NCBI GenBank assembly: GCA_963836075.1 | Contig: CAWIIB010000009.1 | Location: 1,952,001-2,016,000, forward strand | Source: an uncultured Acidobacteriota bacterium | GTDB taxonomy: Bacteria > Acidobacteriota > JAQAZP01 | Length of the DNA stretch: 64,000 bases | Reading direction: 5' to 3' | Shown: one piece after another, positions 37,267-62,472 of the stretch | Numbering within the stretch: the stretch's first letter is position 1 | Layout of the letters: every line of letters starts with the position of its first letter | Position numbers and translations under genes: made by a program | Notes under the pieces: model-generated | Told to the model about the DNA's origin: nothing | Seen by the model: only the letters and a program-made list of their open reading frames with translations | Databases searched by the model: none

Positions 37267-39556
37267 TCAAGGTGTATCGAAAATACCCCCCGCCACCGTC
37301 CCTCCGCAGAGCAGCCCTTGGTCGGCGTAGGCGTCGAACTCGACCACACTCATCGCTTCGGTGTACAGATTGGTGACCCGCCAGGCCGCAACCATGGCCG
37401 GCTCCCGGCTGTCCGGCCCCGGGACGGTGATGATATCGACGATCCCGTCGCCGTGGACGTCGGCGGCGGCCACGCGGACACCGCAGCGGGTGTCGTCATA
37501 CTCGTAGGCGAAGTAGTTCACCTCCGGCATCGCGGTGACCCCGGCGCCGTCATAGTGCCAGCCGCGCACCTGGGCGCCGAAAACGGGGGAGGGGCCCGGG
37601 CCGGTGAGGATCTCATCCCGGCCGTCACCGTCGATGTCGCCGCAGGCCACGTTGACCCCGTATCTCAGGGTGCCGTAGGCGAAGTAGCTGATCCCGGTGA
37701 TCGGCTGTGCCGCTGTACCGTCGATGTTCCAACCACGGACGTGGGGCCCGAACACCGGGCCGGGGCCGGCACCGGTGACGATCTCGTCGATACCGTCGCC
37801 GTCGATGTCGCCGCAGGCTGTGTTGACGCCCCACTTGAGGGTGCCGTAGGCGAAAAAGCTGACCCCGGGGACCGGCTGAACTGCAGCGCCGTCCACGTTC
37901 CAGCCGCGGACGTGGGGCCCGAACACCGCACCGGGCCCGGCGCCGGTGACGATCTCGTCGAACCCGTCACCGTCGATGTCCCCGCAGGCCACGTTCACCC
38001 CGTACCTGTTCGTGCCGTAGGCCAGGTAGCTGACCCCGGGCACCGGCTGGCCAGATGGGCTGAAGCCCCGGACGTGGGGGCCGAAGATGGCGCCCGGGCC
38101 CGGACCGGTGACGATTTCGTCCAGGCCGTTGCCGTCCAGGTCGCCGCAGGCCACGTTGGCTCCCCAGGCCTGGGCCCCGTACGCCGCCCACGATTCGAGC
38201 GGGATCTCGTCGCCCAGCGGATCGAAGCACCTGACCAGCGGCGGATTGATCGCCGCCGGCCCCGGGCCGGTGACCAGGGTCAGCACCGGGTAGTCCAACT
38301 CATCGTAATACGCGTGGAGAAATTCGTCCCAGGCCGTGTCGGCGGGGAAGTCGAGCTCTACCGCTTCGGTACTGCGGGTCGTACAGCCGCCCGCTCCGGG
38401 GAAAGGAAATGCTCAGGCCGCGGGCGTTTTCCTCGATCGACCCATGGCATTCGGCCACCACCGCGGTTTCCATGGCGGTGCGCACCGCCTGGAGGTCGTC
38501 GAGGATCACCGGGTCGTCGGTCAGTCCGGCCAGCTGTTCGGCGAAGTGGTGGACGTCGATCAGGCCGTAACGTTCGGCGCCCCAGAGGCAGAACTCCTGG
38601 GAGCGGTGGCGGGCCAGACGAATCGGATCGACCAGCGTATCGAGGCGGGGGATCAGGTCGGTGGCCAGCTGGTCGATGGCCGCGGCGGCCCCGGCCATTG
38701 CCGAGGTGTCGGTGGCGCTCATGGTCAGGTAGGTGTAGTCCTGATAGTAGTTGTTCTCCCCCACCAGCCGGATGAGCTCCGCCCCCAGCTCCGCGGACGG
38801 AGTGTCCGGCGCGGCAATGAGCGTGTCGCAGAAGCCGTCGAAAATCCCGTTCCAGCGGGCATATCCGCTCAGTTCCTCGCTGCCCACGTAGACCCCCACG
38901 CTCTCCCGCAGTTCGTAGACCGACTCGAAGCAGCCCATCAGGCAGGGGGCGGTGAAACAGAGCAGGTCCACCGGCCCCGCCTCGCCCAGCGCCAGCTGGA
39001 AATCGTTCATGGTCAGGATGTCGTCGCCGTCGGTTTCGTCAACGCAGGCGCCCCGCCAGGCGCCACCATGGTCGTAGCAGGCCAGCAGGTAGCGGTCTGC
39101 CGGGTAGTTTGCCTTCGCGTAGAGCAGGAAATCCCGCAGCGTGTCGGGGTGGCCCATGTTCAACTCGCCGAGGTCGTCCAGCCTGGTCATCTCGTGGTTC
39201 TCACCGATGTGCCAGATGTCGGCTTCCCTGTAATCCCCGTCCCTGAGAACGAGGACGTTGAGATTCGGTCCCGAGTGGGCGTCCCGGGCGAAATCGTTCA
39301 GCGGGTCGTAGGCGTAGTAGAAGTCGGCGTCGTCGTAGAGGAGGATGGTCCAGGTGGTGGCCCCGGGGGAAGGGTTGGGCCGTTCAGGCACTTCCACTGA
39401 CGGGCGGAGTCGGTGGACCGGCCGGTCCTTTGCCTCGAGGACGCGCAGGGAATCGTTCGGCGAGGGGTAGAACCCGCTTCCCCGGATCTCATCCCCCTTG
39501 GCGGTCGGAGGGAGAAGGACGATGGCCAGCAGCAGGACAAAGAGGGTGCGGATCAT
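37267..39556 (-). CDS. Clostripain-like (C11) peptidase with C-terminal module B (apparent frameshift near 38368)
   Basis: ELNMG, DHGGAW and APCLM motifs; removing one C restores collinearity with the paralog at 39553..41748. Confidence 0.82.
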
Positions 39557-41748
39557 TGGAGTGTACCTCCGGCAATGGTTCCCCCGTGATTCAGCCCCAG
39601 GTCGACGTAGGCATCGATCTCGGCCCGGTTGACCGCAATCACGGTACCATTGGACATGCGCCAGGTGAGAACCAGGGCCGGTTCGTCGGGGTCTGGTCCC
39701 GGGACGGTGAGTATCTCGTCGATGCCGTCGCCGTGGATGTCGGCGGAGGCCAGCTGGACACCGTAGCGGGTAAAAGCGAAATAGTAGGCGAGGAAGTTCA
39801 CTTCGGGCATGGGTGAGACCGAGACGCCGTCATAGCGCCAGCCGCGCACGTGGGCGCCGAACCGATTTGACGGCCCCGGTCCGGTGAGGATCTCGTCCCT
39901 GCCGTCTCCATCCAGGTCGCCGCAGGCCACGTTGACTCCCCACCTGTTGGTTCCGTAGGCGAAATAGCTGACGCCGGGGAGCGGTTGGGCCGCAGCACCG
40001 TCCACGTTCCAGCCGCGCACGTGGGGCCCGAACACCGTGCCGGGGCCGGCGCCGGTGACGATCTCGTCAAAGCCGTCGCCGTCCAGGTCGCCGCAGGCCA
40101 CGTTGACCCCCCACTTGAGGGTGCCGTAGGCGAAGTAGCTGACACCGGGGATGGACTGAACTGTCGTGCCATCCACGTTCCAGCCGCGGACGTGGGGGCC
40201 GAAGACCGCGCCGGGTCCGGGTCCGGTGACGATTTCATCGTATCCGTCCCCGTCCAGGTCACCGCAGGCCACGTTGGCGCCATATTTGTTTGTGCCGTAG
40301 GCCAGGTAACTCACCCCCGGGACCGGTTCGCCGGTGGGGCTGAACCCGCGGACGTGGGGGCCGAAGATGGCTCCGGGGCCCGGTCCGGTGACGATCTCGT
40401 CAAAGCCGTCGCCGTCCAGGTCGCCGCAGGCCACGTTGACCCCCCAGGCCTGGACACCATACGCATGAAAATGACCCTGCATGTCGCCGAATTCCACCGG
40501 GTCGAAGGTCCGGACCAGGGGCGGGTTCTCCGCCCCGGGACCGGGTCCGGTGACGATCATCTCCGCCGGCAGGCCCAGGGCGTCGTAGTAGGCGCCCAGG
40601 AACTCGTCCCAGGCGGTGTCGTCGGCAAAATCGAGCTGCACCGATTCATAGGCCGGGTCGTAGAGCGGCCCGCCACGGTGATAATAGACAGAGAGCCCAT
40701 GGGCCCGCGCATGGATTGGCCCGTGGCACTCGGCCACCACGGCGTCGTCGATGGCCGCTTGAACGCTCTCCAGGTCCTGGAGGATCACCGGGTCGCTGGT
40801 CAGGCCGGCGAGCTGATCGCAGTAATCGTGGAGATCCACCATGCCGAGGTGGTCCGCATACTCCTCCCCCATTTCGTGCGACTGGTTGCGGGCCAGCCGG
40901 AGCTCATCGGTGAGTGAACCGAGGCGGGGGATCAGGTCCTGCCCCAGTCTGTCCACGGCCGTGGCAGCCACGGTGGTGGCGCTGGTGTTGACGGCGCTCA
41001 TGGTCAGGCGACGGTGGTCCTCCCAGTAGTCGTTTTCATCCACCAGCCGAATGATGTCCGCCCCGATGCTTGCTGACGAGTCATCCGGGGAGGAAATGAG
41101 CCGGTCACAGATATCGCCCATGATCTCCAGCCAGTAGATGTAGCCGCTCAACTCTTCGCTGCCCACGTAGATGTCGACGCAGTCCCGCAGCTCGTACGCC
41201 GATTCGATGGCGCCCATGTTGCACGGCGCGGTGAAGCAGATCAGGTCCACCCCCCCGGCCGCGGTGAGTGCCAGCTTGAAGTCGTTCATCGAAAGTTTGT
41301 CGTCGCCGTCGGTGTGGTCGCGGCACGCCCCGGACCAGCCTCCGCCGTGACCGTAGGCGGCCAGCAGATGGCGGTCGGCAGGATAGTGTGTCTTGCCCCA
41401 TTCGAGGAAGGAGAGCAGGGTGTCGGGGTGGCCCATGTTCACCTCGCCCCAGTCCTCGAGGTGGGTCAGTTCGTGATTCTGGCCGACGTGCCACAGGTCA
41501 GCCGGTCCCGCATCCCGGTCCCGCAGGACGATCACGTTGAGGTTCGGCCCTGAGTGGGCGTCCAGGGCAAAGGGCTCCAGCGGATCGAAGGCGCTCTCAA
41601 AATCGGCGTTGTCGTAGAAAAAGAGTGTCCAGGTGGTGCCGCCGGGGGATGGTTCAGACGCCGCAGCGGGAGCGCAGACAAGCAGGGCCAGAACCAGGAC
41701 GGCGGTGAGATTCATCCGGCTCAGAAAGCGCGGGGTAAAACGTAGCAT
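39553..41748 (-). CDS. Clostripain-like (C11) peptidase with C-terminal module B
   Basis: EVNMG, GHGGGW, APCNM, GSEE and GLSVY motifs; GDLDGDG repeats. Confidence 0.85.
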   Translation of the reverse strand: MLRFTPRFLSRMNLTAVLVLALLVCAPAAASEPSPGGTTWTLFFYDNADFESAFDPLEPFALDAHSGPNLNVIVLRDRDAGPADLWHVGQNHELTHLEDWGEVNMGHPDTLLSFLEWGKTHYPADRHLLAAYGHGGGWSGACRDHTDGDDKLSMNDFKLALTAAGGVDLICFTAPCNMGAIESAYELRDCVDIYVGSEELSGYIYWLEIMGDICDRLISSPDDSSASIGADIIRLVDENDYWEDHRRLTMSAVNTSATTVAATAVDRLGQDLIPRLGSLTDELRLARNQSHEMGEEYADHLGMVDLHDYCDQLAGLTSDPVILQDLESVQAAIDDAVVAECHGPIHARAHGLSVYYHRGGPLYDPAYESVQLDFADDTAWDEFLGAYYDALGLPAEMIVTGPGPGAENPPLVRTFDPVEFGDMQGHFHAYGVQAWGVNVACGDLDGDGFDEIVTGPGPGAIFGPHVRGFSPTGEPVPGVSYLAYGTNKYGANVACGDLDGDGYDEIVTGPGPGAVFGPHVRGWNVDGTTVQSIPGVSYFAYGTLKWGVNVACGDLDGDGFDEIVTGAGPGTVFGPHVRGWNVDGAAAQPLPGVSYFAYGTNRWGVNVACGDLDGDGRDEILTGPGPSNRFGAHVRGWRYDGVSVSPMPEVNFLAYYFAFTRYGVQLASADIHGDGIDEILTVPGPDPDEPALVLTWRMSNGTVIAVNRAEIDAYVDLGLNHGGTIAGGTLQ

Positions 41749-41823
41749 GGCGATTCCCCCATCATTTTGTACGTTCTACCACAGGGAAACGGCTGCTGCT
41801 GGAAAAAGATCATAAAAAAGTGA

Positions 41824-42828: not shown

Positions 42829-42916
42829 TTTCTGACCTCGGTGAATGCCTGATCCTTGCGGTGGCCGATATTTGCTTTTACCATAGCTTTGAACAGCCGC
42901 AAAGCAGGAGCAGCGC

Positions 42917-43606
42917 ATGCCGGAACAGCTTGTGGGAATCATCAGCGACAGCGGGTTCGTGCTCTACGACGACTCGCCGGGCAAACTGGCCAACCATGAA
43001 GCGGTATGCCGGCAGTACGAGATCGACTACGATGACTTCGTCCGGCGTCTCGGTCCGTACCGCCGCCGGGCCCAGCGTGATCCGGCCTATTCCGGCGAGG
43101 ACGCCCTGCGCGACCTCTCGCGGGAGCTGGGCATCGATGCCGAGGAGGTGCTTGCCGTCCGCCGCTCCCTCAAGTCCCCGCGGGTGCTGCGGGACGGGGT
43201 GCGGGAGACCCTGGCCGAACTGAAGCGGCGCGAGATCCCGTTCGTCATCCTCTCCGACACCTACCGTACCGCCGACCAGTTGCGAAAGAAATATGAAATC
43301 GACCTCGGCCTGGTCGACATGGTCACCGGGTTCATCACTTCCAAGGACCTGGAACTGCGCAAACCCGACCCCGGTATGTACGAGGCGGCGTACCGCGAGG
43401 TGGTTGCCGCGCTGCCCGGCCCGGCCCCCGGCCCCGGCAAGGTGGCCTTCCTCGGCCATGATCTCGACGAACTGGAGGGAGCCCACCGCTATGGCCTCCG
43501 ACCCCTGGCGGTCTACTTTCTCGGTGCGCGGGAAGAGATTTCATTCATCCCCGATCAGGACATCCTGCCCGGTTTCTCGGCGTTGCCGGGGTTGGTCAGC
43601 GAATAA
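42917..43606 (+). CDS. HAD-superfamily hydrolase
   Basis: ISDSGFVLYD motif I, ILSD, RKPDP and FLGHD motifs. Confidence 0.75.
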   Translation: MPEQLVGIISDSGFVLYDDSPGKLANHEAVCRQYEIDYDDFVRRLGPYRRRAQRDPAYSGEDALRDLSRELGIDAEEVLAVRRSLKSPRVLRDGVRETLAELKRREIPFVILSDTYRTADQLRKKYEIDLGLVDMVTGFITSKDLELRKPDPGMYEAAYREVVAALPGPAPGPGKVAFLGHDLDELEGAHRYGLRPLAVYFLGAREEISFIPDQDILPGFSALPGLVSE

Positions 43607-43704: not shown

Positions 43705-46575
43705 GTGAAACTGCTCAGATACAGCTTGCTGGCTCCTGCTCTGTTGATCGTGGCCCTGCTGGCCGGACCGGGTGATCTCCTTCAGGAGATGGCCGCCGGC
43801 GAGCACCGGCTGACCGAAGTCCAGCGGGAAGCGACCCTCCTGGCGCTGGAAGAAAAGCGGGCCCGGCTGGAAGCGCGGAAACTGAAACCGATGGACCAGC
43901 CGCAGGAAGCGGCGGAGTTCTTCCTCCAGCAGCGGTTGGAGCCGGGGCAGGACAAACTGCCGGTGGGGCGGATGCGGGCGGAGCTGGAGGGGATCAAAGC
44001 TCGTGAAGCGGCACTGGCTGGTGAGGACCGGGAAAGGGGACCGGGCGGCATCTCCAGCTGGCAGTCCATCGGGCCGGGCAACATCGGCGGCCGCACCCGC
44101 TCCATCGTCATCGACCCGGACACCCCCGACACGATGTACGCGGGCGGGGTGGCCGGCGGGATCTGGAAGTCCACCGATGCCGGGGCCAGCTGGAACGCGG
44201 CCGACGACCTGATGCTCAACCTCAGGGTCTGCGCCCTGGCCATCGACCCCACCAATACCAGTGTGCTCTATGCCGGCACCGGTGAGGGTGTGTTCAGCGG
44301 CAGTGGCACCGGAGGCCTGGGCATCTTCAAGTCCACGGATGCCGGGGCCAGCTGGAACCAGTTGGCCGGGACGGTGAGCGGCGTGCCCGAGGGTGCGTTC
44401 AATTTTGTCAACGAGATCGTGATCAGTCCCAATGACTCCAGCCGCCTCTACGCCGCCACCCGCACCGGGGTCTGGCGCAGCACCGATGCCGGGGAGAACT
44501 GGTCCCACCTGCTGGGCAACCCGCGGCATCTCTCGGGCCCGTACAACTCCAACGGGTGTGTGGTGGGCTGCAGCGACCTGGCCGTGCGCAGCGACCGCAA
44601 CCCGGACACGCTCTTTTCCGCCTTCGGCATCTACGAGTCGGACGGGCTCTACCTCTCCGAGGACGGCGGCGACTCCTGGATCGGTTACACCACCGGGCCG
44701 GAGCAGGGCCGGATGGAGATCGCCATCGCGCCGAGCAACAACGACGTGATCTACCTCACCATGGCCGACAACGGCACCGCTGTCCAACTGGGGCGGCTGA
44801 TCAGTGTCTTCCGCGCCGACGACGGCCTGAACTTCAGCGCGGTACTCGACCTGGAACACCCCTTCAGCCCCTGGCTGTTCAGTTACCTGGCCATCGCCAC
44901 CGGCTGCTACGAGCACCCGACAATTTACTCCCAGGGATGGCACGACAATGTCATTGCGGTGGATCCGATCAACCCGGAGATCGTCTGGGTGGGCGGTATC
45001 GACCTGTTCCGTTCAGATGACGGCGGCCAGACCTTTGGCCTGGCCAGCTACTGGTTCTACTTCCTCTGGGATCCCCAGCCCGCCACCTATGTGCACGTGG
45101 ACCAGCACGAGATCGTCTTCCATCCCGGATACAACGGCCTCAGCAACCAGATCATGTATGTGGGCAACGACGGCGGCGTGTGGCGCACGGCCAACGCCCG
45201 GGCCGCCACCACCGAGGAGGAGTGCCCCATCGGTCCGGACCCCGGCCCGCCGCCGGAGATCGTCTGGGAGAACATGAACAACGGCTACGGGGTGACCCAG
45301 TTCTACCACGGCGATGCCGCCCTGACAGCCGACCGCTTTGTGGGTGGTGCCCAGGACAATGGTTCGGCCCAGGTGCTGTCTGCCGGGACCCCGGACAGCT
45401 GGGAATACGTGTACAGCGGCGATGGCGGGTACGTGGCCATCGACCCGCGGGACGACCGGCACTACTTCGTCGAGATCCAGGGCTTTCCCACAATCGCCGA
45501 AACCAACAACGGCGGTATCTCATTCAGTCCAGCGGTAAACGGTATCACCGACACCGACGGCATCTTCATCAACCCCTTTGCCATGGACCAGTCCAATCCC
45601 GACGTCATCTGGACCGGCGGCCGCCGCCCCTGGCGCACCATCGATGGCGCCGGCCTGTGGGAGCTGGCCGGGCCCAATTTCAGCGGTGCGGACAGACTTA
45701 CGGCCATCAATATTTCCCCGGCGGACAGCAACGTGGTCTGGTTCGGCTTCAACAACGGTTATGTGGCCCGGACCACCAACGGTCTGGCCGAGAAGCCGGA
45801 CTTCGAGGTCTTTGCCAACGGCCTGCCGGGCGGGTGGATCAGCAGCGTGGCCGCCGACCCGGTGGACACCGAAACGGCTTACTGCACGATCTCCTCATAT
45901 GGCGTGCCCCACGTGATGAAGACCACTGACGGAGGCAGCAACTGGGCCTCCATCGACGGCATCTCGGTCACCGGCGTGCCCGACATCCCGGTGCACTGGA
46001 TCGCCGTCCGTCCCGGCAACCCGCAACAGCTCTACGTGGGCACCGAGTTCGGCGTCTTTGCCAGCGACGATGGCGGGGGAACCTGGTTCCCGGCCAACAC
46101 AGGGCTGGCCCACACCATCGTGGAATCTCTCGACTGGAAGGATCCGGACACTCTGGTGGCCTTCACCCATGGCCGCGGGGCCTACGTCACCCACCTGGAT
46201 AGCATCGCCACCATCGATGCGGCCCTGGTCTGTGAGCCCTCCACCGGCACCCTGCCCTTTGTCACCCAGCTGTGGGTCACCCTGGGCAATCTCTACGCCG
46301 GGCAGACCCGGCGGGTGGCCGCCCGTCTGGATGTGCAACTGGCCGCGGGTGCCTACTTTCCGGGATGGCGCGCGGGATACACCAACATCGGTCCCGGGGG
46401 CAGCTATTTCACCTCCTGGAACCAGAACCTCCCGGCCCTGGGTACACTGGTGGGAGAGAACGTCTTCACCCTGGCTGCCGAGGACGTGACGCCGTCACCC
46501 TACAATCAGCCGCCCTATCCGCCGGCCGGGGATACCTGCACTTCGCAGCAGATTTTCACTGCTCTGGCGCCCTAA
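43705..46575 (+). CDS. Secreted BNR/VPS10-like propeller protein (glycosyl hydrolase-like) with C-terminal module A
   Basis: GPGNIGGR, repeated SxDGGxxW Asp-boxes, HVDQH, GGAQDNG and THGRG; ends TALAP. Confidence 0.85.
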   Translation: MKLLRYSLLAPALLIVALLAGPGDLLQEMAAGEHRLTEVQREATLLALEEKRARLEARKLKPMDQPQEAAEFFLQQRLEPGQDKLPVGRMRAELEGIKAREAALAGEDRERGPGGISSWQSIGPGNIGGRTRSIVIDPDTPDTMYAGGVAGGIWKSTDAGASWNAADDLMLNLRVCALAIDPTNTSVLYAGTGEGVFSGSGTGGLGIFKSTDAGASWNQLAGTVSGVPEGAFNFVNEIVISPNDSSRLYAATRTGVWRSTDAGENWSHLLGNPRHLSGPYNSNGCVVGCSDLAVRSDRNPDTLFSAFGIYESDGLYLSEDGGDSWIGYTTGPEQGRMEIAIAPSNNDVIYLTMADNGTAVQLGRLISVFRADDGLNFSAVLDLEHPFSPWLFSYLAIATGCYEHPTIYSQGWHDNVIAVDPINPEIVWVGGIDLFRSDDGGQTFGLASYWFYFLWDPQPATYVHVDQHEIVFHPGYNGLSNQIMYVGNDGGVWRTANARAATTEEECPIGPDPGPPPEIVWENMNNGYGVTQFYHGDAALTADRFVGGAQDNGSAQVLSAGTPDSWEYVYSGDGGYVAIDPRDDRHYFVEIQGFPTIAETNNGGISFSPAVNGITDTDGIFINPFAMDQSNPDVIWTGGRRPWRTIDGAGLWELAGPNFSGADRLTAINISPADSNVVWFGFNNGYVARTTNGLAEKPDFEVFANGLPGGWISSVAADPVDTETAYCTISSYGVPHVMKTTDGGSNWASIDGISVTGVPDIPVHWIAVRPGNPQQLYVGTEFGVFASDDGGGTWFPANTGLAHTIVESLDWKDPDTLVAFTHGRGAYVTHLDSIATIDAALVCEPSTGTLPFVTQLWVTLGNLYAGQTRRVAARLDVQLAAGAYFPGWRAGYTNIGPGGSYFTSWNQNLPALGTLVGENVFTLAAEDVTPSPYNQPPYPPAGDTCTSQQIFTALAP

Positions 46576-47661: not shown

Positions 47662-49410
47662 ATGGCAAGGTGGCTGTGCATCAAGCTGCCGTCGGTGATT
47701 CTCCTGTCCCTGCTGCTGGTGGTTGCCTCGGTGTTTTCCGGGGCAGCATTTGCGGCGGAGGATCTGGAGATCATCCAGGCGGTGAAGAACGGTACCCCCG
47801 TTTCGGGGGGCAATCGGGTGGTCATGGGCGAGGTGTTCGCCCGCGACGGCTGAGCGTACTGTCCCTCTGCGGAGCAGGGGATGATAGACCTCTTGGCCAA
47901 CTTCGGTGACGACGAATTCGTCTGTGTCATGTACTACTCCACCAGCGGCTGGTCCTGCCCGGAGCACGGCGACCGTGCCGGTCTCTACGGTGTGAGCGGT
48001 GTGCCCGACGCTTATTTCAGCGGTTATCTTAACTCTCTCGGCGGGCTGCCCAGTGGCTCGATGTATGACTACTACCTGCCCCTGGTGAACCAGGTCATGG
48101 CCAATCCCGGTATGTTGGCAATGTCACTGGACATGACCATCGATGCCGGTACCATCACCGTCAACGGCACCATCGAGGCCCTGGAAAACGCCCCCGATGC
48201 CCTCGTCTACGTCGTGGTCTACGAAGAGGACTCGGGCCGTGAGCCGAACCTGGCCCGTGGCTTCCCGGTGTGGGAGACCATGCTCACCGCCACCACCACC
48301 GGCGCGACCCAGGACATCAGCGGCACCCTGGCCGTGGGCACCGGCTGGAACGAGGCCAACCTCCACGCCATCATGTTTGTCCAGGCCCTGCAGGACTTCA
48401 CGGCCACCCGGATCGTCACCGGTCCCGGCCCCGGCCCGGACAACGTCTGCCGCCTGGCCGCCTGGGTCCCGGAGAATCCAGGCACTGCCGACGTGACCAT
48501 CAACGCATACGGCGTGGACAAATACGGCGTCAACGTGGCCGTGGGCGACCTCACCGGCGATGGCTTTGACGAATTCCTCACCGGTCCCGGACCGGGCGCG
48601 GTCTTCGGCCCGCAGGTGCGCGGTTTCAACTACGAAGGCGACCAGCTCCCCGGCCTCAGCTATTTTGCCTATGGCACCCTGAAATACGGGGTCAACGTGG
48701 CTGCCGGCGACTTGGACAATGACGGTGTGGCCGAGATCCTCACCGGCGCCGGACCGGGCGCGGTCTTCGGCCCCCACGTTCGCGCCTGGAAGTACAACGG
48801 CAGTGAGGTGAGTTCCATGCCGGGGATCAGTTACTTCGCCTACGGCACACCAAAGTATGGTGTAAACGTGGTCTGCGGTGACATCGACGGCGACGGTTTT
48901 GACGAGATCATCACCGGTGCCGGACCGGGCGCGGTCTACGGCCCGCACGTGCGCGGCTGGAACTACGACAATGACACCCTCACCTCGATTCCCAGTGTGA
49001 GCTTCCTGGCTTACAACACCAACAAGTTCGGCGTAAACGTGGCCTGCGGTGACATCGACGGTGACGGGATGGACGAGTTGATCACCGGTGCCGGCCCCGG
49101 CGCGGTCTTCGGGCCGCACCTCCGTGGCTGGAACATCGACGGCGGTACGGTCACGGCCATTTCCGGAATCAACACCATGGCCTTCGACTACACCGAGTGG
49201 GGTATCAATGTTGGTTGTGGAGACGTGGACCGTGACGGCATGGACGAGATCTTTGTCGGTGCCGGTCCCGGCGAGGCCCACGACGCCTGGGTCCGCGGCT
49301 TCAACTATGACGGCGGCACGCTGGAGATGGTGTATGACTTCACCGCCTACGGCGCCCCGGTCATCACCCACGGTGTCAACGTGACCTGTGGCTACTTCTT
49401 CGCCCCGTAA
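47662..49410 (+). CDS. Secreted selenoprotein: Omp28-like thioredoxin domain (UAYC) with C-terminal module B (582 aa, Sec64)
   Basis: ORFs 47632..47853 and 47881..49410 are in frame: RVVMGEVFARDG-TGA-AYCPSA; YGVSGVP cis-Pro motif; GAGGAGG RBS and signal peptide. Confidence 0.88.
47861..47882 (+). promoter_or_regulatory. Putative bacterial SECIS hairpin
   Basis: GUCCC-U(bulge)-CUGC-GGA-GCAG-GGGAU starting 7 nt after the UGA. Confidence 0.7.
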
Positions 49411-53178: not shown

Positions 53179-53368
53179 CCGTGGGATAGTCTATTGCTAC
53201 GGGTCGGCGTACCGAATCACTGCCGTTTACCAAGCCCACAGCATGGGCGGCCTGATCTCCCGTTCCACCGGGTTGCGGTCCGCCGGCAGAAAACCTATAT
53301 TGAACGTGATCAAAGCGGTTCCCGCCTGTGGTTTTATTAATCCTGGTTACGAGTCGGGGGTATCGGTC

Positions 53369-55249
53369 ATGAAACGGGATTCGGGTAATAGTGTTTTTTT
53401 CTTGGCCGTGGTCCTGTCAATTGTTGCGCTGCTCGGGCTTTCCACTGTTGCGACGGCCCTGGACACCATTGGCAGCGCCGGGGGCGGGCCGCTGGACGGC
53501 ATGCTCCAGGTGCAGGTGCTGCACGCCGGCACGGGCGCACCCTTTGCCGGGGCCTTCGTTATGGTGGGTGATGCCCCCGGATCCCCTTTTGCCGGCAACT
53601 GGGGCGTCACCTCGGCTTCCGGTGACATCACCTTTACCGACCCTGCCCTCCAGGGGCCGCTCACGGTGACCGCCGGGGCCGCGGGGCACCGCTATGTCAC
53701 CATGGTCCTCGCCGACGCCAGCCAGCTGGTGCTGGCCCTCGAGCCGGTGGCCTCCCTGACCTTCCTCTCCGAAGTGGGGGACTATGTGTCGGGGGTGGAC
53801 GTGGACAACGGGACCTTCAACTTCGGCGACGGAAACGTCGATGTGGCCTTTGTGCTGCGGGCCATGACCCTCGACGACATGATGTCCTTTGACATGGAGA
53901 ACATGTTCGGGCCGGAGGAGTTCATCGATATCCTGGGCCAGCCGTTCCCGGTGCCCTCCAACGTCTTCATCCCCCTGCAATACGAAACCTTCATCCCCAT
54001 CGTCAAGGACCACTACTACCTGTACCTGACCCCCGGGGACGCCACTCTGGCCGCGCTCTCCGGCCGGATGCCGCTGGCTGAGCTGGCGGCCGGCGGCGAG
54101 ATGGTCGACCTGCTGCCCCACATCCAGTGGCGGGAGATGGACGTGCTGGACATCACGGTGGCCGGCGACACCTCCGACGCCGACCTCACCGTCGACCCGG
54201 ACCTCAGCGCAACCGTGACCCTCAACCTGGACAACATTCCTGATGGTTGCACCGGGTTCGGGCTCTCCATCGGCGACCTGGATGGCCTGAACGGCCTGGG
54301 CCGCCTGGTCCCCCTGGGCATGAGTTCCATCGGCTGCCCTGACGGCAGCGGTCCCTGTTCGGGCACCCTGACCCTGACCACCGCCGCCGCCACCGGCGAG
54401 CTGGCCGGCATGGGCTATTTCCCGGCCGCCGCCGTGCAGGGTGACCTGACCAACGATGCGCTCTTTGTCATGGACCGCTCTTCCCACAGCCAGACCTACA
54501 CGGCCACCATCGATTCCTTTTACAACCGTCTCGACCTGGCCTACGGGGCGGGCGGGTTCGCCTGGAACGATGCGGAAAACGCCGCCACCGGCAGCCCGGT
54601 TGTGGACCTCCAGCTGGCCCTGATCTCCAACCCGTTGAACGACGAGGTCTACTGGGAGTTTTTGCTTCCCGGGGGAGCACTCTCCCTGACAATACCCCAG
54701 CTGCCGCCCGAGGCCCCGGCCGGCCTGGTACCGGGCACCGGCTACAACTGGGCTCACACCGCCCTGGGACTGGCCTACGACCTGGCGGTCTTCGACTACG
54801 GGGATTTCGCCTTCTCGGCCATCATTGCCCATGTCAGCCATCTGGCAACCAACAGCCTGGACATCACCTGGGACGCGGCCGGCACGGTCTCCGCGTCCCT
54901 GAGCTGCCTGCCGTCCTCCGGCACCGTTCCCTTTGCCACCGGCATGCAGGTCATGCTGACCAACCTGTACAGCGGCCAGAGCCGCCGGGTGGCCGGCCGC
55001 CTCGATGTCCTGCTGGCCGGCGGCGCCAATTACGGCAACTGGAGGGCCGGCTACACCAATCTCGGTCCGGGGGAAAGCTGGAGCGCTTCCTGGAACACCA
55101 CCATCCCGGCCCTGGGCAGCGTGATCGGTGAGAACAGTTTCACCCTGGTGGCGGTGGATGTGACGCCGTCCCCGTTCAACCAGCCGCCCTACCCGCCGGA
55201 CGGCGATTCGGACCAGGCGGTCTGTCTGGTCACCGGGGTTGCGCCCTGA
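53369..55249 (+). CDS. Secreted hypothetical protein with C-terminal module A
   Basis: Signal peptide, carboxypeptidase-regulatory-like N-terminal strands; ends PFNQPPYPP...TGVAP. Confidence 0.75.
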   Translation: MKRDSGNSVFFLAVVLSIVALLGLSTVATALDTIGSAGGGPLDGMLQVQVLHAGTGAPFAGAFVMVGDAPGSPFAGNWGVTSASGDITFTDPALQGPLTVTAGAAGHRYVTMVLADASQLVLALEPVASLTFLSEVGDYVSGVDVDNGTFNFGDGNVDVAFVLRAMTLDDMMSFDMENMFGPEEFIDILGQPFPVPSNVFIPLQYETFIPIVKDHYYLYLTPGDATLAALSGRMPLAELAAGGEMVDLLPHIQWREMDVLDITVAGDTSDADLTVDPDLSATVTLNLDNIPDGCTGFGLSIGDLDGLNGLGRLVPLGMSSIGCPDGSGPCSGTLTLTTAAATGELAGMGYFPAAAVQGDLTNDALFVMDRSSHSQTYTATIDSFYNRLDLAYGAGGFAWNDAENAATGSPVVDLQLALISNPLNDEVYWEFLLPGGALSLTIPQLPPEAPAGLVPGTGYNWAHTALGLAYDLAVFDYGDFAFSAIIAHVSHLATNSLDITWDAAGTVSASLSCLPSSGTVPFATGMQVMLTNLYSGQSRRVAGRLDVLLAGGANYGNWRAGYTNLGPGESWSASWNTTIPALGSVIGENSFTLVAVDVTPSPFNQPPYPPDGDSDQAVCLVTGVAP

Positions 55250-56399: not shown

Positions 56400-56566
56400 T
56401 GGTTGATCCTCCAACCCGACTATTGTTCGACTGTTCGACCGAAATTTGATCCACTGAGTATTATAGCATATAATCGATTAAATAAATAGATCATTGGCTC
56501 GGAAGGCGATCAGGCCAAACGATACGAAGAGATACGACCAGAGTTGCATCCCCCGGCTGACTCCGC

Positions 56567-58294
<1,728 letters not shown>

Positions 58295-58298
58295 CGCT

Positions 58299-60365
58299 CT
58301 ACTCGAACCAGCCGGCAGCCACGGTGGCCCCGTGGGTCCACCCGGCAGGGAAGGCCTCGAGGCTGAACCACTGGCTCACCGTCTCGGTGGCCGGGTCATA
58401 GGTGTAGACCTTCACCGGCGACCCCATGGAGGGGTCGGGGCCGCCGCCCACCACCAGCTCGTCGCCGCCGATGCCGTCGAGGTTGGCGTCGGCGTAGATC
58501 CGGGCGCCGTAGCGTGCTTCGCTGGCCGGCCAGGCAAAGAAGCTGTAGCCGGGAAGTTCCACCAGCTCGTCCCCGTCATAGTTCCAGCCCCGGACATGGG
58601 CGCCGAAAGCGGGGGAGGGGCCGGGCGAGGTGAGGATCTCGTCGATACCGTCGGCGTCCACATCGCCGGAGCCCACCATCACGCCGTAGCGCGGTGTTTC
58701 ATAGGCGAAGAAGCTGATCGCCGGGATGGCCGCCGCCGTCCCGCCGTCCACGTTCCAGCCGCGGACGTGGGGCCCGAATACGGCGCCCGGTCCGGCACCG
58801 GTGACGATCTCGTCGTAGCCATCGCCGTCGTAGTCGCCCGAGGTGACGTTGGTCCCCCATTTCAGCGTGCCGTAGGCGAAGTAGCTGACCCCGGGCACCG
58901 GGCTGATGCCGGGGCCGCCGTCGTAGTTGAAGGCCCGCACGTGGGGCCCGAAGACGGCGCCCGGTCCGGCGCCGGTGATGATCTCGTCGAAGCCGTCACC
59001 GTCCAGGTCGCCGCAGGCCACGTTGACCCCGTATTTCAGAGTGCCATAGGCGAAGTAACTCAGGCCGGGCAGCGGTGTGCCGTCGATCTCGAAGCCGCGC
59101 ACGTGGGGGCCGTACACGTCGCCGGGACCGGCGCCGGTGATCACCACGTCGTGGGTGCCGCCGTTGACCCGGCCGCAGGTGACGTTGACCCCGTAGTAGT
59201 CAGCGCCGTAGGCCGTGAACTCCTCCTCGAAGGCCGCCCCCTGCTCACAGGGGAAGGCCCGCACCACCGGCGGGTTGCTGTAGGCCGGTCCGGGGCCGGC
59301 CAGCACCAGACGGTTGGTGCTGGAGGCCGAGCGCTGGCGATACTCGATCAGCTGGGTCTGCATGACGTAGAACGGCGCCTGGCGGCTGCCCCACGCGCAT
59401 TCCGTGCAGGTCACTCCGTCCACGCAGTCGGGGTGGTCCGGATCGCAGATATTCTCGTAGGGCTCGAGGTTGTAGTCGAGGATTTCCGTTTCCCCGGGGA
59501 CTATGGACGGGGTGATGTCCACGATCCAGGGAAAGGCCTTGTCCCCCGGGCACCAGCCGTTGCGGCTGTAGGACCAGGTGCCGCCCTGGGGGCTGCAGGG
59601 GTTGTTGCGGCAGTCGTTGCGCCAGACATATTCCTGGTAGGCGTCCATATCGGCCACCACCTCGTGCCACTTCCAGGAGAACTCGGCCGCGTTGTCGGTG
59701 TTGCCGAAACCGTGACCGGTGATGTAGGTCCGCACGTGGGCCTCCACCGTTTCGGCGTCGATATCCGCGGCGATGGGCACCAGGTAATTTTCGGAGGGGT
59801 TGTCGAATTTGCCGTAGAGCAGGTGGTCATAGTTCCAGAGGTTGGTGATCTTGTACGGTTCCAGCTCGGTGATCCCGGGCATGAAGGCGAAGTCGCAGGT
59901 GATCAGCCAGCCCTGGCCGCCTCCGACCCAGGTATCGATGAAGAGCTGCAGTGTCACTTCGTCGTGGAGCAGGGTCTCGTAGTCGGAAAGGTCATACACC
60001 CAGGAGCAGGTGCCCGGCCGGGTGGCGCCGGTGATGTCGTAGGGGGTGACGAAACGCATGATCTCGAATTTTTCGTCGGTATCGGTCACCACCCGGATGT
60101 GAGCCAGCCGGTCCCAGGGGTCGCAGTCCCCCGGGGATTCGGGGCAGGCAATGGTCATGTAGCAGAGGATCTCGCCCCACTGGCCGCCTTCCGGAGGGAA
60201 GGTGAAGTCGGCGGTCACCGTCCGCGAGTCGATATCGACCAACTGCTGGTTGAAGGTGTTCACCCACACCGTGTCGCTGCGACTCTTCTCCTCCGCAGTT
60301 GCACCGGGCGCCGGAAACAGGATCGAGAGCACGGCCGCGGCCGCAAACCAATAACGGAGATTCAT
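58299..60365 (-). CDS. Peptide-N-glycosidase F-like protein with C-terminal module B
   Basis: DPWDR, RFVTPY, TGHG, AEF and QGGTW..RNGWCPG motifs; GDxDGDG repeats. Confidence 0.82.
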   Translation of the reverse strand: MNLRYWFAAAAVLSILFPAPGATAEEKSRSDTVWVNTFNQQLVDIDSRTVTADFTFPPEGGQWGEILCYMTIACPESPGDCDPWDRLAHIRVVTDTDEKFEIMRFVTPYDITGATRPGTCSWVYDLSDYETLLHDEVTLQLFIDTWVGGGQGWLITCDFAFMPGITELEPYKITNLWNYDHLLYGKFDNPSENYLVPIAADIDAETVEAHVRTYITGHGFGNTDNAAEFSWKWHEVVADMDAYQEYVWRNDCRNNPCSPQGGTWSYSRNGWCPGDKAFPWIVDITPSIVPGETEILDYNLEPYENICDPDHPDCVDGVTCTECAWGSRQAPFYVMQTQLIEYRQRSASSTNRLVLAGPGPAYSNPPVVRAFPCEQGAAFEEEFTAYGADYYGVNVTCGRVNGGTHDVVITGAGPGDVYGPHVRGFEIDGTPLPGLSYFAYGTLKYGVNVACGDLDGDGFDEIITGAGPGAVFGPHVRAFNYDGGPGISPVPGVSYFAYGTLKWGTNVTSGDYDGDGYDEIVTGAGPGAVFGPHVRGWNVDGGTAAAIPAISFFAYETPRYGVMVGSGDVDADGIDEILTSPGPSPAFGAHVRGWNYDGDELVELPGYSFFAWPASEARYGARIYADANLDGIGGDELVVGGGPDPSMGSPVKVYTYDPATETVSQWFSLEAFPAGWTHGATVAAGWFE

Positions 60366-60396
60366 TGCCCTTACTCCTTCATGCGTTGATTGAAAA

Positions 60397-62472
60397 CTAC
60401 TCAAACCAGCCGGCCGCCACGGTGGCCCCGTGGGTCCACCCGGCAGGGAAGGCCTCGAGGCTGAACCACTGGCTCACCGTCTCGGTGGCCGGGTCATAGG
60501 TGTAGACCTTCACCGGCGACCCCATGGAGGGGTCGGGGCCGCCGCCCACCACCAGCTCGTCGCCGCCGATGCCGTCGAGGTTGGCGTCGGCGTAGATCCG
60601 GGCACCGTAGCGTGCTTCGCTGGCCGGCCAGGCAAAGAAGCTGTAGCCGGGAAGTTCCACCAGCTCGTCCCCGTCATAGTTCCAGCCCCGGACATGGGCG
60701 CCGAAAGCGGGGGAGGGGCCGGGCGAGGTGAGGATCTCGTCGATACCGTCGGCGTCCACATCGCCGGAGCCCACCATCACGCCGTAGCGCGGTGTTTCAT
60801 AGGCGAAGAAGCTGATCGCCGGGATGGCCGCCGCCGTCCCGCCGTCCACGTTCCAGCCGCGGACGTGGGGCCCGAATACGGCGCCCGGTCCGGCACCGGT
60901 GACGATCTCGTCGTAGCCATCGCCGTCGTAGTCGCCCGAGGTGACGTTGGTCCCCCATTTCAGCGTGCCGTAGGCGAAGTAGCTGACCCCGGGCACCGGG
61001 TTGATGCCGGGGCCGCCGTCGTAGTTGAAGGCCCGCACGTGGGGCCCGAAGACGGCGCCCGGTCCGGCGCCGGTGATGATCTCGTCGAAGCCGTCACCGT
61101 CCAGGTCGCCGCAGGCCACGTTGACCCCGTATTTCAGGGTGCCGTAGGCGAAGTAACTCAGGCCGGGCAGCGGTGTGCCGTCGATCTCGAAGCCGCGCAC
61201 GTGGGGCCCGTACACGTCGCCGGGCCCTGCGCCGGTGATCACCACGTCGTGGGTGCCGCCGTTGACCCGGCCGCAGGTGACGTTGACCCCGTAGTAGTCA
61301 GCGCCGTAGGCCGTGAACTCCTCCTCGAAGGCCGCCCCCTGCTCACAGGGGAAGGCCCGCACCACCGGCGGGTTGCTGTAGGCCGGGCCGGGGCCGGCCA
61401 GCACCAGACGGTTGGTGTTGGAAGCCGAGCGCTGGCGATACTCGATCAGCTGCGACCGCATATAGTAGTTCGGCTTGGTGCGGCTGCCCCATTCGCACTG
61501 GGCGCAGGTCACCCCGTCGACGCAGTCGGGGTTGTCCGGCCGGCAGAAGTTTTCGTACGGCTCGAGATTGTAGTCCAGGATCGCTGTTTCGCCGGGCGTC
61601 ACCGAACTGGTTATGTCCACCTCCCAGGGGATCACCTTGTCTCCCGGGCACCAGCCGTTGCGGCTGTAGGACCAGGTGCCGCCCTGGGGGCTGCAGGGGT
61701 TGTTGCGGCAGTCGTTGCGCCAGATATAGTCCTGGTAACTGTCCATCTCCGCCACGATCTCGTGCCATTTCCACGAGAATTCCGCTGCGTTGTCGGTGTT
61801 GCCGAAGGCGTGGCCGGTGATGTATGTCCGCACCTTGACTTCCACCGTCTCGGCGTCGATATCGGCCGCCAGGGGCACCAGATGGTCCTCGGAAGGATCT
61901 TCCGGGTGCCCGTACAGAAGGTTGTCGAAGGACCAGAGGTTGGTGATCTTGTAAGGCTCCAGCTCGGTAATCCCGGGCATGAAGGCGAAGTCGCAGGTGA
62001 TCAGCCAGCCCCGGTCGTCGCCAATCCAGGTCCCGATCTGGAGCTCCAGGGTTACCTCGTCGTGAAGCAGTGTCTCGTAGTCGGAGAGGTCATAGACCCA
62101 GGTGCAGGTGCCTGGCCGGTCTCCCCCGGTGATATCGTACGGAGTGACAAAGCGCATGATCTCATAGATAACTTCGTCCTTACCCTCCATGGTGACCACC
62201 CGGATTTGACCCAACCGGTCCCAGGGATCGCAGTCGGCCGGCGGGCCGGGGCAGCCCACGGTCATGTAACAGAGGATCTCACCCCACTGGCCGCCTTCGG
62301 GGGGGAACTGGAAGGTGGTATAGGTCGGCGTAATCCAGTTGATGAATTCCTGGTCAAAGGTATGGACCCACACCGTGTCACCGCGGCTCTCCTCATCAGC
62401 CGTCACGACGGGGGCCAGGATCAGGATTGACAGCACGACAGCCAGGGCCGCGCACCGGAATCGGAGGTTCAT
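60397..62472 (-). CDS. Peptide-N-glycosidase F-like protein with C-terminal module B (tandem paralog)
   Basis: Same motifs as the neighbouring gene; 3' half about 99% identical to it. Confidence 0.82.
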   Translation of the reverse strand: MNLRFRCAALAVVLSILILAPVVTADEESRGDTVWVHTFDQEFINWITPTYTTFQFPPEGGQWGEILCYMTVGCPGPPADCDPWDRLGQIRVVTMEGKDEVIYEIMRFVTPYDITGGDRPGTCTWVYDLSDYETLLHDEVTLELQIGTWIGDDRGWLITCDFAFMPGITELEPYKITNLWSFDNLLYGHPEDPSEDHLVPLAADIDAETVEVKVRTYITGHAFGNTDNAAEFSWKWHEIVAEMDSYQDYIWRNDCRNNPCSPQGGTWSYSRNGWCPGDKVIPWEVDITSSVTPGETAILDYNLEPYENFCRPDNPDCVDGVTCAQCEWGSRTKPNYYMRSQLIEYRQRSASNTNRLVLAGPGPAYSNPPVVRAFPCEQGAAFEEEFTAYGADYYGVNVTCGRVNGGTHDVVITGAGPGDVYGPHVRGFEIDGTPLPGLSYFAYGTLKYGVNVACGDLDGDGFDEIITGAGPGAVFGPHVRAFNYDGGPGINPVPGVSYFAYGTLKWGTNVTSGDYDGDGYDEIVTGAGPGAVFGPHVRGWNVDGGTAAAIPAISFFAYETPRYGVMVGSGDVDADGIDEILTSPGPSPAFGAHVRGWNYDGDELVELPGYSFFAWPASEARYGARIYADANLDGIGGDELVVGGGPDPSMGSPVKVYTYDPATETVSQWFSLEAFPAGWTHGATVAAGWFE

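Follow-up and report, generated by a model that had tools for sequence, protein, structure and literature searches.

A six-bladed propeller at the C-terminus of many exported proteins in one Acidobacteriota lineage, probably an undescribed address or anchor for surface enzymes

The locus described here raises the question of why five exported proteins of three unrelated kinds should all end in the same domain of about 331 residues. The window, a 64,000-nucleotide stretch of contig CAWIIB010000009.1 from an uncultured Acidobacteriota bacterium, contains five genes that are closed by this domain, here called Module B, at the extreme C-terminus of each ORF. Our analysis establishes the existence of Module B, its predicted fold, its fixed C-terminal position, the diversity of its cargo, its restriction to one lineage, its equivalence in slot to the tags of other phyla and its exclusivity with a second C-terminal tag, and it suggests that Module B probably addresses or anchors enzymes to the surface in a way not yet described. 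Other C-terminal tags common to many proteins, among them T9SS C-terminal domains, sortase signals, PEP-CTERM and dockerins, have in each case brought a sorting or assembly machine to light. Should Module B have such a role, it would point to an unknown receptor or export route in Acidobacteriota, allow the surface "degradome" of these sediment bacteria to be recognised by a simple sequence marker, and supply a natural scaffold for display or lectin use in the form of a very stable, symmetric six-blade propeller.

Five window genes that end in Module B

An initial annotation had placed the module at the C-terminus of two clostripains, two PNGase-F-like enzymes and a selenoprotein. All five stretches are confirmed as C-terminal on their ORFs, with coordinates correct to within a few bases, and all five proteins carry signal peptides. 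The first Peptidase_C11 (clostripain) gene (37267..39556, minus strand) ends in copy 1 of the module (37270..38280, minus; placed by alignment, HMM score 610.6 bits) and is split by one extra base at 38368 into two ORFs, 38300-39556 with the C11 match (Pfam E 9.7e-31) and 37267-38298 with FG-GAP, whose frames join between DPQY and EAVELDF. Because this base is absent from the contigs of all four of four public runs, we consider the gene to be intact in nature and the frameshift to be an assembly error. The second C11 gene (39553..41748, minus) is intact, with a signal peptide, matches to C11 (E 1.2e-25), FG-GAP_3 and FG-GAP, and copy 2 of the module (39556..40569, minus), which is the sequence modelled below. 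Both genes lie well above the Pfam cut-off for Peptidase C11 (PF03415; 108 and 91.3 bits against 25.8), which bears out the claim of two such cargoes. The NCBIfam clostripain equivalog gives them 47 and 30 bits against a cut-off of 550, so that they are members of the C11 family and not clostripain itself.

The two PNGase-F-like genes form a tandem pair, one at 58299..60404 (minus), whose likely start is the ATG at 60365 (MNLRYW...), and its paralogue at 60397..62472 (minus), with module copies 4 (58302..59312, minus) and 5 (60400..61410, minus) placed by alignment. Both the N- and the C-domain of PNGase F are matched on both genes above the Pfam cut-offs (PF09113, 56 and 56.7 bits against 25; PF09112, 26 and 25.5 bits against 22.4; N-glycanase_C E 4.9e-15 and 3e-15, and N-glycanase_N E 9.2e-6 on the first gene), so this part of the annotation also holds. 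Module B is kept more alike than the cargo in this pair, the module DNA being 97-100% identical and the cargo DNA 69-89%.

The remaining gene, at 47662..49410 (plus), encodes an Omp28-related putative selenoprotein whose read-through translation has a signal peptide, a U-x-x-C motif and module copy 3 (48412..49407, plus; alignment, 573.1 bits), and its start is at 47662 and not at 47881. The selenoprotein reading is plausible: the in-frame TGA at 47851..47853 (plus), read as selenocysteine, lies in a G-U-A-Y-C-P motif, the hairpin directly after it is a candidate SECIS element (-27.9 kcal/mol, z -1.98; 8 of 200 shuffled sequences folded equally well), and a tRNA-Sec gene is found in the genome. 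However, the NCBIfam model Omp28_seleno (NF045500) scores the protein at 44.7 bits (E 1.1e-11) against a cut-off of 200, which by this curated rule makes it a relative of that family and not a member.

Fold, blades and conserved loops

The five window modules align over 340 columns with a mean column identity of 73%. An AlphaFold2 model of copy 2, built with 103 paralogues, predicts 24 strands arranged as a six-bladed FG-GAP/VCBS propeller (pLDDT 95.3, pTM 0.94), in which the last strand of the protein closes blade 1. The initial annotation had described tandem units of about 58 residues and had suggested propeller modelling; the units are indeed FG-GAP-type propeller repeats, but they build a closed six-bladed unit and not an open run. 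Pfam scores on the five proteins are 43-56 bits for FG-GAP (cut-off 22.1) and 26.7-60 bits for FG-GAP_3 (cut-off 26.9, with one copy just under it at 26.7). By its profile, its Dx[DN]xDG loop and its predicted four-stranded blades, Module B is assigned to the FG-GAP/VCBS beta-propeller superfamily (PF01839, PF13517). The Dx[DN]xDG loop sits between strands A and B of the blades, and in its longer form, G-D-x-D-G-D-G-x-D-E, this putative calcium loop is kept in blades 3-5 at 90% or more across the 103 paralogues, and for the most part in blade 2 as well.

The blades are not equally conserved. Within one module, blades 2-5 share 49-69% mutual identity. Compared across paralogues, each of these four blades is 58-72% identical to its counterpart, whereas blades 1 and 6 reach about 40%. 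Each of blades 2-5 has the GPG..GPHVRG and FAYGT loops, and their conservation across unrelated cargo had been taken as a pointer to a shared ligand. That argument fails, since these loops partly coincide with the 'cage' and strand motifs that are canonical for FG-GAP repeats and recur from blade to blade, so that loop conservation alone does not show a ligand site. Such conservation could be purely structural, a point that counts against reading Module B as an address or anchor. The conserved His, Arg, Trp, Tyr, Thr and Lys residues in the B-C and D-A' loops and in strand C of blades 2-5 are candidate sugar contacts.

Fold searches with the model return lists filled with propellers. The best Foldseek match is the six-bladed lectin propeller of UmbA4 (9oee_A, E 2.9e-9, TM-score only 0.55), and the fungal lectins PVL and PAL are also on the list; VIA-align, an independent aligner, puts generic six-bladed propellers at the top, with Keap1 kelch leading (Z 21.4), and UmbA4 49th (Z 16.8), below kelch, YWTD and NHL propellers. 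The low TM-score and this ranking count against a lectin-like address or anchor. The UmbA4 propeller is described as bound to teichuronic acid (9oee), with sugar-pocket positions that vary between blades while core and Ca2+ loops are conserved (PMC13274773, in the part drawn on here). Set against the pattern that this part describes, the uniform loops of Module B are the opposite, and this counts against a lectin-like reading. On the other hand, the sugar pocket of PVL and tachylectin-2 is formed by the D-A' loop (PMC8023676, likewise in part), and a glycan ligand stays plausible for Module B because its FAYGT..K(W/Y)G stretch falls in that same D-to-A' loop.

Genome census, cargo and the C-terminal slot

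The five secreted proteins of the window are real cases, but they are a large undercount. A genome-wide HMM search finds Module B in 131 ORFs at a score of at least 300 bits and in 17 fragments (148 ORFs in all); the module makes up about 2% of the DNA of the 6.2-Mb genome. It spans about 331 residues in 125 of the 131 ORFs and ends a median of 2 residues from the stop codon, and the possibility once raised of an FG-GAP repeat at random positions does not agree with this fixed placement. Our results support the view that Module B is one self-contained domain with a constant place at the C-terminus of secreted proteins that are otherwise unrelated. When 128 N-terminal parts were scanned by Pfam, the cargo fell into about 25 kinds of family, including 30 beta-helix/NosD/PMP proteins, 22 proteins with extra VCBS repeats, 22 peptidases of 10 families and 5 BNR proteins, besides PNGase F, a PPAD-type deiminase, a GDSL lipase, a GH99-like protein and others, with no family assigned to 31 parts. 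A crude signal-peptide filter passes 94 of the 131 ORFs. The 37 that fail count against an address or anchor for exported proteins; some of them are cut by assembly frameshifts or TGA codons.

In a sample of 301 genomes of the phylum, strong copies are confined to the three that belong to this genus. At least 1,618 cluster representatives in public protein sets have Module B at E<=1e-30; each of the 150 best, out of 1.84 billion representatives, carries it at the C-terminus, and the 120 database proteins listed include none with an informative name. Close relatives of the window DNA are found in contigs from salt-marsh and marine-sediment runs of four studies. The lineage with Module B is found in such sediments and has no T9SS tags.

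The relatives of the cargo enzymes in other phyla show what may stand in place of Module B. For the clostripain cargo, the FlgD_ig-type tail PF13860 is present on each of the seven best foreign relatives, two of which have the Por_Secre_tail domain PF18962 besides; PF13860 and/or PF18962 is present on 102 of the 120 matches listed for the PNGase cargo. Module B thus fills the slot held by T9SS C-terminal domains on related enzymes in other phyla, an example of tag swapping on homologous enzymes across phyla. Within this genus, none of the 3 genomes matches PF18962, which is found once each in 2 of 81 genomes of the phylum. The same genome also encodes a second C-terminal tag of about 120 residues, Module A, in 209 ORFs with a median of 0 residues to the stop. 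None of these 209 ORFs is among the 148 with Module B, and 110 of 179 Module A cargo parts have a homologue among Module B cargo. Together the two mutually exclusive tags mark about 340 ORFs. In view of the equivalence with the T9SS slot, the exclusivity with Module A and the homologous cargo, it is most economical to suppose that the proteins share a ligand or destination, and this much of the shared-ligand proposal survives on other grounds than loop conservation. No ligand, receptor or partner, dedicated machinery or export route was found for Module B, which counts against an address or anchor, and a glycan, S-layer protein or scaffold, as earlier suggested, was not identified as a partner in this analysis.

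Possible roles and comparison with known systems

The reading that we prefer, tentatively and at somewhat less than an even chance, is that exported proteins share Module B as a lineage-specific address or anchor at the C-terminus, one that probably binds multivalently in the manner of a lectin. Sec signal peptides would bring the proteins into the periplasm, where the last 331 or so residues would fold into the six-bladed FG-GAP/VCBS propeller, stabilised by putative Ca2+ ions in the Dx[DN]xDG loops of blades 2-5. If the orientation follows textbook propeller topology, from which we assigned the faces, both chain ends would lie on the calcium-loop face and leave the opposite face free, where the B-C loops (GPGAVFGP) and D-A' loops (AYGTxK[W/Y]G) of four near-identical blades would be displayed. 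Through several contacts at once, this free face may bind a polymer of repeating units, for which a glycan from the envelope or matrix of the producing cell is the likeliest candidate, and such binding would keep many different enzymes at one place, presumably the cell surface. The scheme supposes some route by which a folded 36-kDa domain could cross the outer membrane.

Module B could instead be chiefly a secretion signal, with a dedicated outer-membrane translocon that recognises the folded propeller as T9SS recognises its domain, and with the module perhaps cut off afterwards. We regard this as unlikely as the main role, and it is compatible with anchoring. The strict C-terminal position and the T9SS domains in the same slot on related cargo speak for it, as does the absence of Module A from Module B proteins, which must therefore exit the cell without that tag; the genome also encodes two or more secretins, through which folded proteins can pass. 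However, with 331 residues Module B is three to four times as large as the sorting domains known so far, no conserved neighbour gene was seen within the window, and no conserved linker or cleavage motif was found ahead of the module. SprA_N and GldM also have no match in the genome (94.7% complete), nor does Por_Secre_tail, in searches that left the control genomes unmatched too (14 of 14 for SprA_N and GldM).

A second alternative, to which we give only a minor chance, is that Module B acts like a carbohydrate-binding module, a lectin that fixes enzymes to glycan-rich detritus or to other cells and not to the producer. By fold it is akin to the lectin propellers UmbA4 and PVL, which bind glycans on foreign surfaces (PMC13274773, as far as the part drawn on goes), many cargoes are degradative enzymes, and the sediment origin of the close DNA relatives agrees with such a role. 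Yet a uniform module on about 25 kinds of cargo, which mix peptidases, a lipase, a glycanase, redox-type proteins and non-enzymatic repeat proteins, fits a common location better than a common substrate, and a substrate lectin would be expected to pair with a sorting tag, while no ORF carries both tags.

It is quite improbable that Module B is an FG-GAP propeller of the common sort, multiplied by gene duplication, and acts as a stabiliser or spacer with no common ligand or address role. Membership of FG-GAP/VCBS by Pfam, sequence likeness to integrin alpha (E 3.4e-6) and the nearest ESM Atlas clusters, which are generic FG-GAP/VCBS proteins commonest in Planctomycetota, are consistent with this view, and for 43 of 83 modules the nearest one belongs to a protein of the same cargo class, which indicates whole-gene duplication. 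In the other 40 of 83, however, it is on a different class, and the cargo is unrelated; position and blade number are fixed, the module is conserved more strongly than the cargo, and it is exclusive with Module A despite common cargo families. The module HMM, moreover, gives only about 0-20 bits to the generic VCBS repeats that lie N-terminally in these proteins. A dockerin-like or oligomerisation domain that assembles enzymes on a protein scaffold or on each other is highly improbable: dockerins too are Ca2+-loop modules common to many enzymes, and Dockerin_1 matches occur on 31% of the members of one Acidobacteriota FG-GAP Atlas cluster, where they may only reflect the shared Ca2+ loop, but Module B is unrelated in fold and size to the dockerin, a duplicated F-hand module of about 70 residues that works with a cohesin scaffold, and no repetitive scaffold-like protein is present among the 13 largest non-module ORFs scanned.

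Returning to an address or anchor, a bolder version, possible but doubtful, would be that an Acidobacteriota lineage without T9SS sorts proteins, or displays them on its surface, by an undescribed system that recognises and anchors them through Module B. The address would then be a calcium propeller of 36 kDa in its folded state, a second system with a 120-residue tag would run in parallel, and cargo genes common to T9SS-bearing phyla would be re-tagged by recombination to suit the machinery of the host.

Several known systems resemble Module B in part. It resembles the FG-GAP/VCBS propellers of integrin alpha chains and matches integrin alpha-4 and alpha-V by sequence (E 3e-6 to 5e-5), but the model has six blades and the integrin propeller seven, so that Module B is not of the strict integrin type, and its place is a constant, terminal one on cargo of many sorts. 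It differs from generic FG-GAP proteins in its own G-P-H-V-R-G and A-Y-G-T-x-K motifs, found at 0 of 10 loci in another family of the phylum. Pneumococcal choline-binding domains and the dockerins are surface modules common to many enzymes in Gram-positive systems; Module B is likewise a C-terminal module of near-identical repeats on many secreted enzymes and could bind an envelope polymer or scaffold, although its fold is different. With UmbA4 and PVL (PDB 2bwm, seven-bladed) it shares a C-terminal VCBS/FG-GAP propeller with Ca2+-type loops on a secreted protein, and their sugar pockets lie at or between blades and use the D-A' loop (PMC13274773 and PMC8023676, in the parts drawn on). Identity to Module B, however, is only 14-20%, with TM-scores of 0.48-0.55, and UmbA lectins have diversified for recognising other species, whereas Module B is uniform across more than 100 paralogues. 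An autotransporter (type V) C-terminal translocator does not fit, for Module B is predicted to be a soluble propeller and not an outer-membrane beta-barrel, although 30 cargoes are of beta-helix/PMP type. Module A is also found at the extreme C-terminus of exported proteins with homologous cargo families, and differs from Module B in size and in never sharing an ORF with it. Module B is not itself a T9SS type A C-terminal domain, as it has no PF18962 match and is a 331-residue six-bladed propeller, not an Ig-like sandwich of about 70-100 residues. Like that domain, it stands at the extreme C-terminus of many unrelated Sec-exported proteins, and the two have in common C25 gingipain-type peptidases, a PPAD-type deiminase, M14 and S8 peptidases, PNGase F and clostripain as cargo.

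Module B in the window and in the genome

Each of the five stretches on which the initial annotation had placed Module B, a C-terminal domain of about 331 residues, proves to be the 3' end of an open reading frame (ORF), and all of them encode the same module. Aligned over 340 columns, the five copies have a mean column identity of 73%; they share 52-73% identity with the first copy and match both FG-GAP_3 and FG-GAP of Pfam, and no NCBIfam model matches Module B. Upstream of the module, Pfam recognizes Peptidase_C11 in two proteins and both PNGase-F domains in two others, and inspection reveals a signal peptide on all five. The first clostripain gene is split into two ORFs (38300-39556 and 37267-38298) by one extra base at 38368. 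Because this base is absent from the contigs of all four public runs compared, the best-matching run included, the gene is no pseudogene and the break is an error of the assembly; a split of this kind may also affect other short or apparently signal-less Module B ORFs of the genome. The neighbours of the five genes are unrelated hydrolases and transporters, with no conserved neighbour among them, and the public runs listed as containing this stretch include no RNA run.

The fifth window protein can plausibly be read as a selenoprotein, since an in-frame TGA (47851-47853) falls in a U-x-x-C motif, the N-terminal part matches the NCBIfam model 'Omp28-related selenoprotein' (E 1.1e-11, although its 44.7 bits fall well short of the cut-off of 200), the TGA is directly followed by a hairpin (-27.9 kcal/mol, z -1.98) and the genome, G000, has a tRNA-Sec gene (G000 C1:969768-969865). 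With the TGA read as selenocysteine, the frame runs upstream to an ATG at 47662 and then includes a signal peptide as well as a G-U-A-Y-C-P motif. Another Omp28-like ORF with Module B (G000 C1:678354-679901), whose N-terminus is also missing from the stop-to-stop frame, may likewise be a selenoprotein.

To count the module genome-wide, a profile of the five window copies was run against the genome (6.23 Mb, 10 contigs), taking every stop-to-stop ORF of 80 aa or more. The census extends the family far beyond five members, with 152 ORFs matching at E<=1e-5, a count that may include genes split by assembly frameshifts; 131 reach at least 300 bits, 17 score 50-300 bits and are mostly fragments, and exactly five lie inside the window. 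Since both large contigs carry such ORFs (77 and 52), contamination is not the explanation. The module is about 331 aa long in 125 of the 131 ORFs, and its consistently C-terminal placement, which the initial annotation had noted on five genes, holds throughout: the distance to the stop codon has a median of 2 residues and a maximum of 90 in the 131 ORFs, and all 150 best cluster representatives carry the module at the very end. No linker or cleavage motif precedes it, as the cargo, the N-terminal part of the protein, joins directly to '(I/L)VTGPGPG'. A crude filter (a basic residue, then a hydrophobic stretch) finds a signal-like N-terminus in 94 of the 131 ORFs.

The cargo is diverse. When 128 N-terminal parts were assigned to their best Pfam family at E<=1e-5, leaving out three ORFs with fewer than 30 upstream residues, the classes were right-handed beta-helix/NosD/Chlam_PMP (30), additional generic FG-GAP/VCBS (22), peptidases (22), BNR/Sortilin (5), other propellers (3), PNGase F, GSDH and Invasin_D3 (2 each) and nine singletons (PAD_porph, GDSL lipase, GH99/DUF5010, Lcl_C, Big_1, fn3, BACON_2, DUF362 and Omp28). 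The peptidases comprise S8 (6), C25 (4), M1 (3), C11 (2), S41 (2), one each of C1, S9, M14 and M28, and one weak Trypsin_2 match. The remaining 31 parts, which include the window's split clostripain and the TGA-truncated selenoprotein, have no family.

Among 41 relatives, strong matches occur only in this genome and two others of its genus, with at least 62, 57 and 58 matches in the three genomes. These are also the only ones with matches at E<=1e-40 among 301 genomes of the phylum from 185 genera, with up to seven candidates scored per genome. The 32 matches in a genome of another family, G030, were rejected as weak generic FG-GAP proteins (at most 89 bits) that lack the G-P-H-V-R motif. A search of 1.84 billion cluster representatives returned 13,840 matches at E<=0.001, 6,901 at E<=1e-10 and 1,618 at E<=1e-30, and a word-indexed search, with 8,000 candidates scored, found at least 2,538 longer proteins at E<=1e-10. 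None of the 120 matches listed has an informative protein name; where a source name is given, which is seldom, it reads 'hypothetical protein' or is a generic automatic label. Neighbours in the ESM Atlas are generic FG-GAP/VCBS clusters, commonest in Planctomycetota. Several studies of salt marsh and marine sediment have runs with contigs almost identical to the window. Where the conserved blades lie (window 37500-38120 and 39660-40590), contig depth summed in four sediment metagenome runs is 10- to 100-fold that of the cargo DNA alongside. A conserved element in high copy number should give such a rise, which indicates many related module copies in those communities.

The modules are better conserved than their cargo. 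In the tandem PNGase pair (58299-62472) identity is 69-89% in the cargo DNA and jumps abruptly at the junction to 97-100% in the module DNA. This suggests gene conversion confined to the module; a collapsed assembly may instead account for the near-identical modules. Across 103 modules the identity has a median of 57% (range 40-99.7%) and hardly depends on cargo class (60% within the same class, 58% between different ones). Of 83 modules, 43 have their nearest module on cargo of the same class, where chance would give 11.5. Therefore both whole-gene duplication and re-assortment have taken place.

Sorting tails on foreign relatives and a second tag

The relatives of two cargo domains in other organisms often end in T9SS-type (type IX secretion) tails. 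Of the foreign relatives of the clostripain cargo, the seven with the best scores (47-49% identical) all carry PF13860 and two of them also PF18962, such a tail being present on 8 of 53 clostripain matches overall. For the PNGase cargo (relatives 46-73% identical), 102 of the 120 matches listed have PF13860 and/or PF18962, 17 have neither and one has FG-GAP, and several are named T9SS type A sorting-domain proteins (Eisenbacteria and others). No PF18962 match appears in any of the three genomes of the genus, and two of 81 genomes of the phylum have a single match apiece. PF14349, PF18962 and TIGR03517 likewise have no match in this genome, a result that does not establish absence because the control genomes also gave none. 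The tails in the same slot raise the possibility that Module B is itself a true secretion signal, read by an undescribed translocon. We regard a secretion signal as unlikely, though it would be compatible with anchoring. The genome has at least two secretins. The last residue of Module B ORFs is often aromatic (58 of 111, Phe in 48; the common ending is ...VAAGRF), which is a feature of outer-membrane protein signals too. The terminal Phe is probably structural, as its counterpart in an alignment with the other blades is the hydrophobic residue after G-D.

TamB, POTRA and Omp85 domains occur together in one open frame of about 2,180 aa twice in the genome, at locus L066:5128-11694 (G000 C9:2267510-2274076), between two Module B genes, and at locus L094:1-6534 (G000 C9:1011951-1018484). 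Each looks like a TamB-TamA/BamA-like fusion.

Four other window ORFs, at 29222-31072 (-), 32551-33759 (-), 43705-46575 (+) and 53243-55249 (+), share a C-terminal domain of about 120 aa ending in ...DVTPxPYNQPPYPPxGD...AP, which is probably the Module A of the initial annotation. Its profile matches 209 ORFs of the genome with a median of 0 residues to the stop, and none of the 209 is among 148 Module B ORFs, so that no ORF carries both tags. A homologue among Module B cargo (E<=1e-10) exists for 110 of 179 Module A cargo parts, and the classes common to both include VCBS, beta-helix, C25, M28, S8, M14, PAD, BNR, Omp28 and GSDH. Homologous exported proteins thus carry one tag or the other and never both, the pattern predicted by alternative addresses. 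A gingipain-family C25 peptidase of 1,184 aa with PA14 and PKD domains (25553-29107 (+)) carries neither module, so not every exported C25 enzyme here is tagged. The window also holds two radical-SAM/SPASM genes and two sulfatase genes (13510-14709 (+), 24447-25442 (+), 19837-21669 (-) and 49632-50987 (-)), which fits anaerobic sulfatase maturation.

Predicted fold and conserved loops

An AlphaFold2 model of one window copy (39556-40569), computed from an alignment of 103 paralogous modules, reached a pLDDT of 95.3 and a pTM of 0.94. Its 24 strands form six four-stranded blades, strand A of blade 1 being supplied by the C-terminal strand, and the chain terminates at the point at which a calcium loop would start. 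Module B is therefore modelled as a six-bladed propeller with FG-GAP/VCBS-type sequence, and the predicted fold rules out an autotransporter. The solved structures closest to it in sequence are integrin alpha-4 and alpha-V (E 3e-6 to 5e-5). Foldseek placed first UmbA4, a six-bladed lectin propeller with teichuronic acid (9oee_A, E 2.9e-9, TM 0.55), followed by kelch and designed six-blade propellers, the PVL and PAL lectins and integrin. VIA-align over all representatives ranked generic six-bladed propellers on top (Keap1, Z 21.4) and UmbA4 49th (Z 16.8). We take the lectin likeness as a lead, not as a result.

Blades 2-5 repeat a near-identical unit, YGVNVACGD-x-DGDG-x-DEI-x-TGAGPGAVFGPHVRGW-(variable C-D loop)-PGVS(F/Y)FAYGT-x-K. 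Pairs among blades 2-5 of one module share 49-69% identity, with 69% for blades 3 and 4; the same blade across paralogues is 58-72% identical, blades 1 and 6 only about 40%. This conservation was mapped onto sequence and secondary structure. In propellers of this type strand A is connected to strand B by the DxDxDG loop, which lies on one face, and the D-A' loop forms the sugar pocket in PVL and tachylectin-2, according to PMC8023676. By analogy, both chain ends of Module B would lie on the DxDxDG-loop face, and the B-C loop (GPGAVFGP) and the D-A' loop (AYGTxKW/YG) on the opposite one. In UmbA4, PMC13274773 describes pocket residues that vary between blades and a conserved core with conserved calcium loops. 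The initial annotation had taken the conserved GPG and FAYGT loops as a sign of a shared ligand. Their conservation in blades 2-5 is borne out; their reading as a ligand site is weakened, because they overlap the structural FG-GAP/cage motif and because the pocket residues of UmbA4 differ between blades. A lectin that targets the cargo to its substrate, as the UmbA4 match and the PVL pocket might suggest, seems unlikely to us. A plain structural domain, for which the Pfam FG-GAP matches and the generic FG-GAP/VCBS neighbours in the ESM Atlas would speak and against which the two mutually exclusive tags stand, appears very improbable. A dockerin-like assembly module is scarcely credible, as the predicted fold rules out a dockerin and none of the 13 largest non-module ORFs is a cohesin-like repeat protein that could serve as scaffold.

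Module B as a proposed shared address and known systems

We tentatively favour the reading of Module B as a shared C-terminal address or anchor, because T9SS tails occupy the same slot abroad, the host yields no PF18962 match, a second tag is used exclusively of the first and the module is more conserved than its cargo. A tagged protein would be exported by Sec, its C-terminal part would fold into a calcium-stabilised propeller, and the free face might then bind multivalently to a polymer of repeating units that belongs to the producing cell's envelope or matrix.

A full-text literature search, judged on titles and abstract openings, found no publication about a C-terminal tag of FG-GAP type in Acidobacteriota, and by that search what is new here is a putative shared C-terminal address domain made from a fold not reported in that role. 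By family, Module B belongs to the FG-GAP/VCBS superfamily, in which it differs from integrins and from PVL by having six blades instead of seven. In use it resembles the C-terminal domains of T9SS and the repeat-built anchors, yet it fails the fold and profile tests that define either of them.
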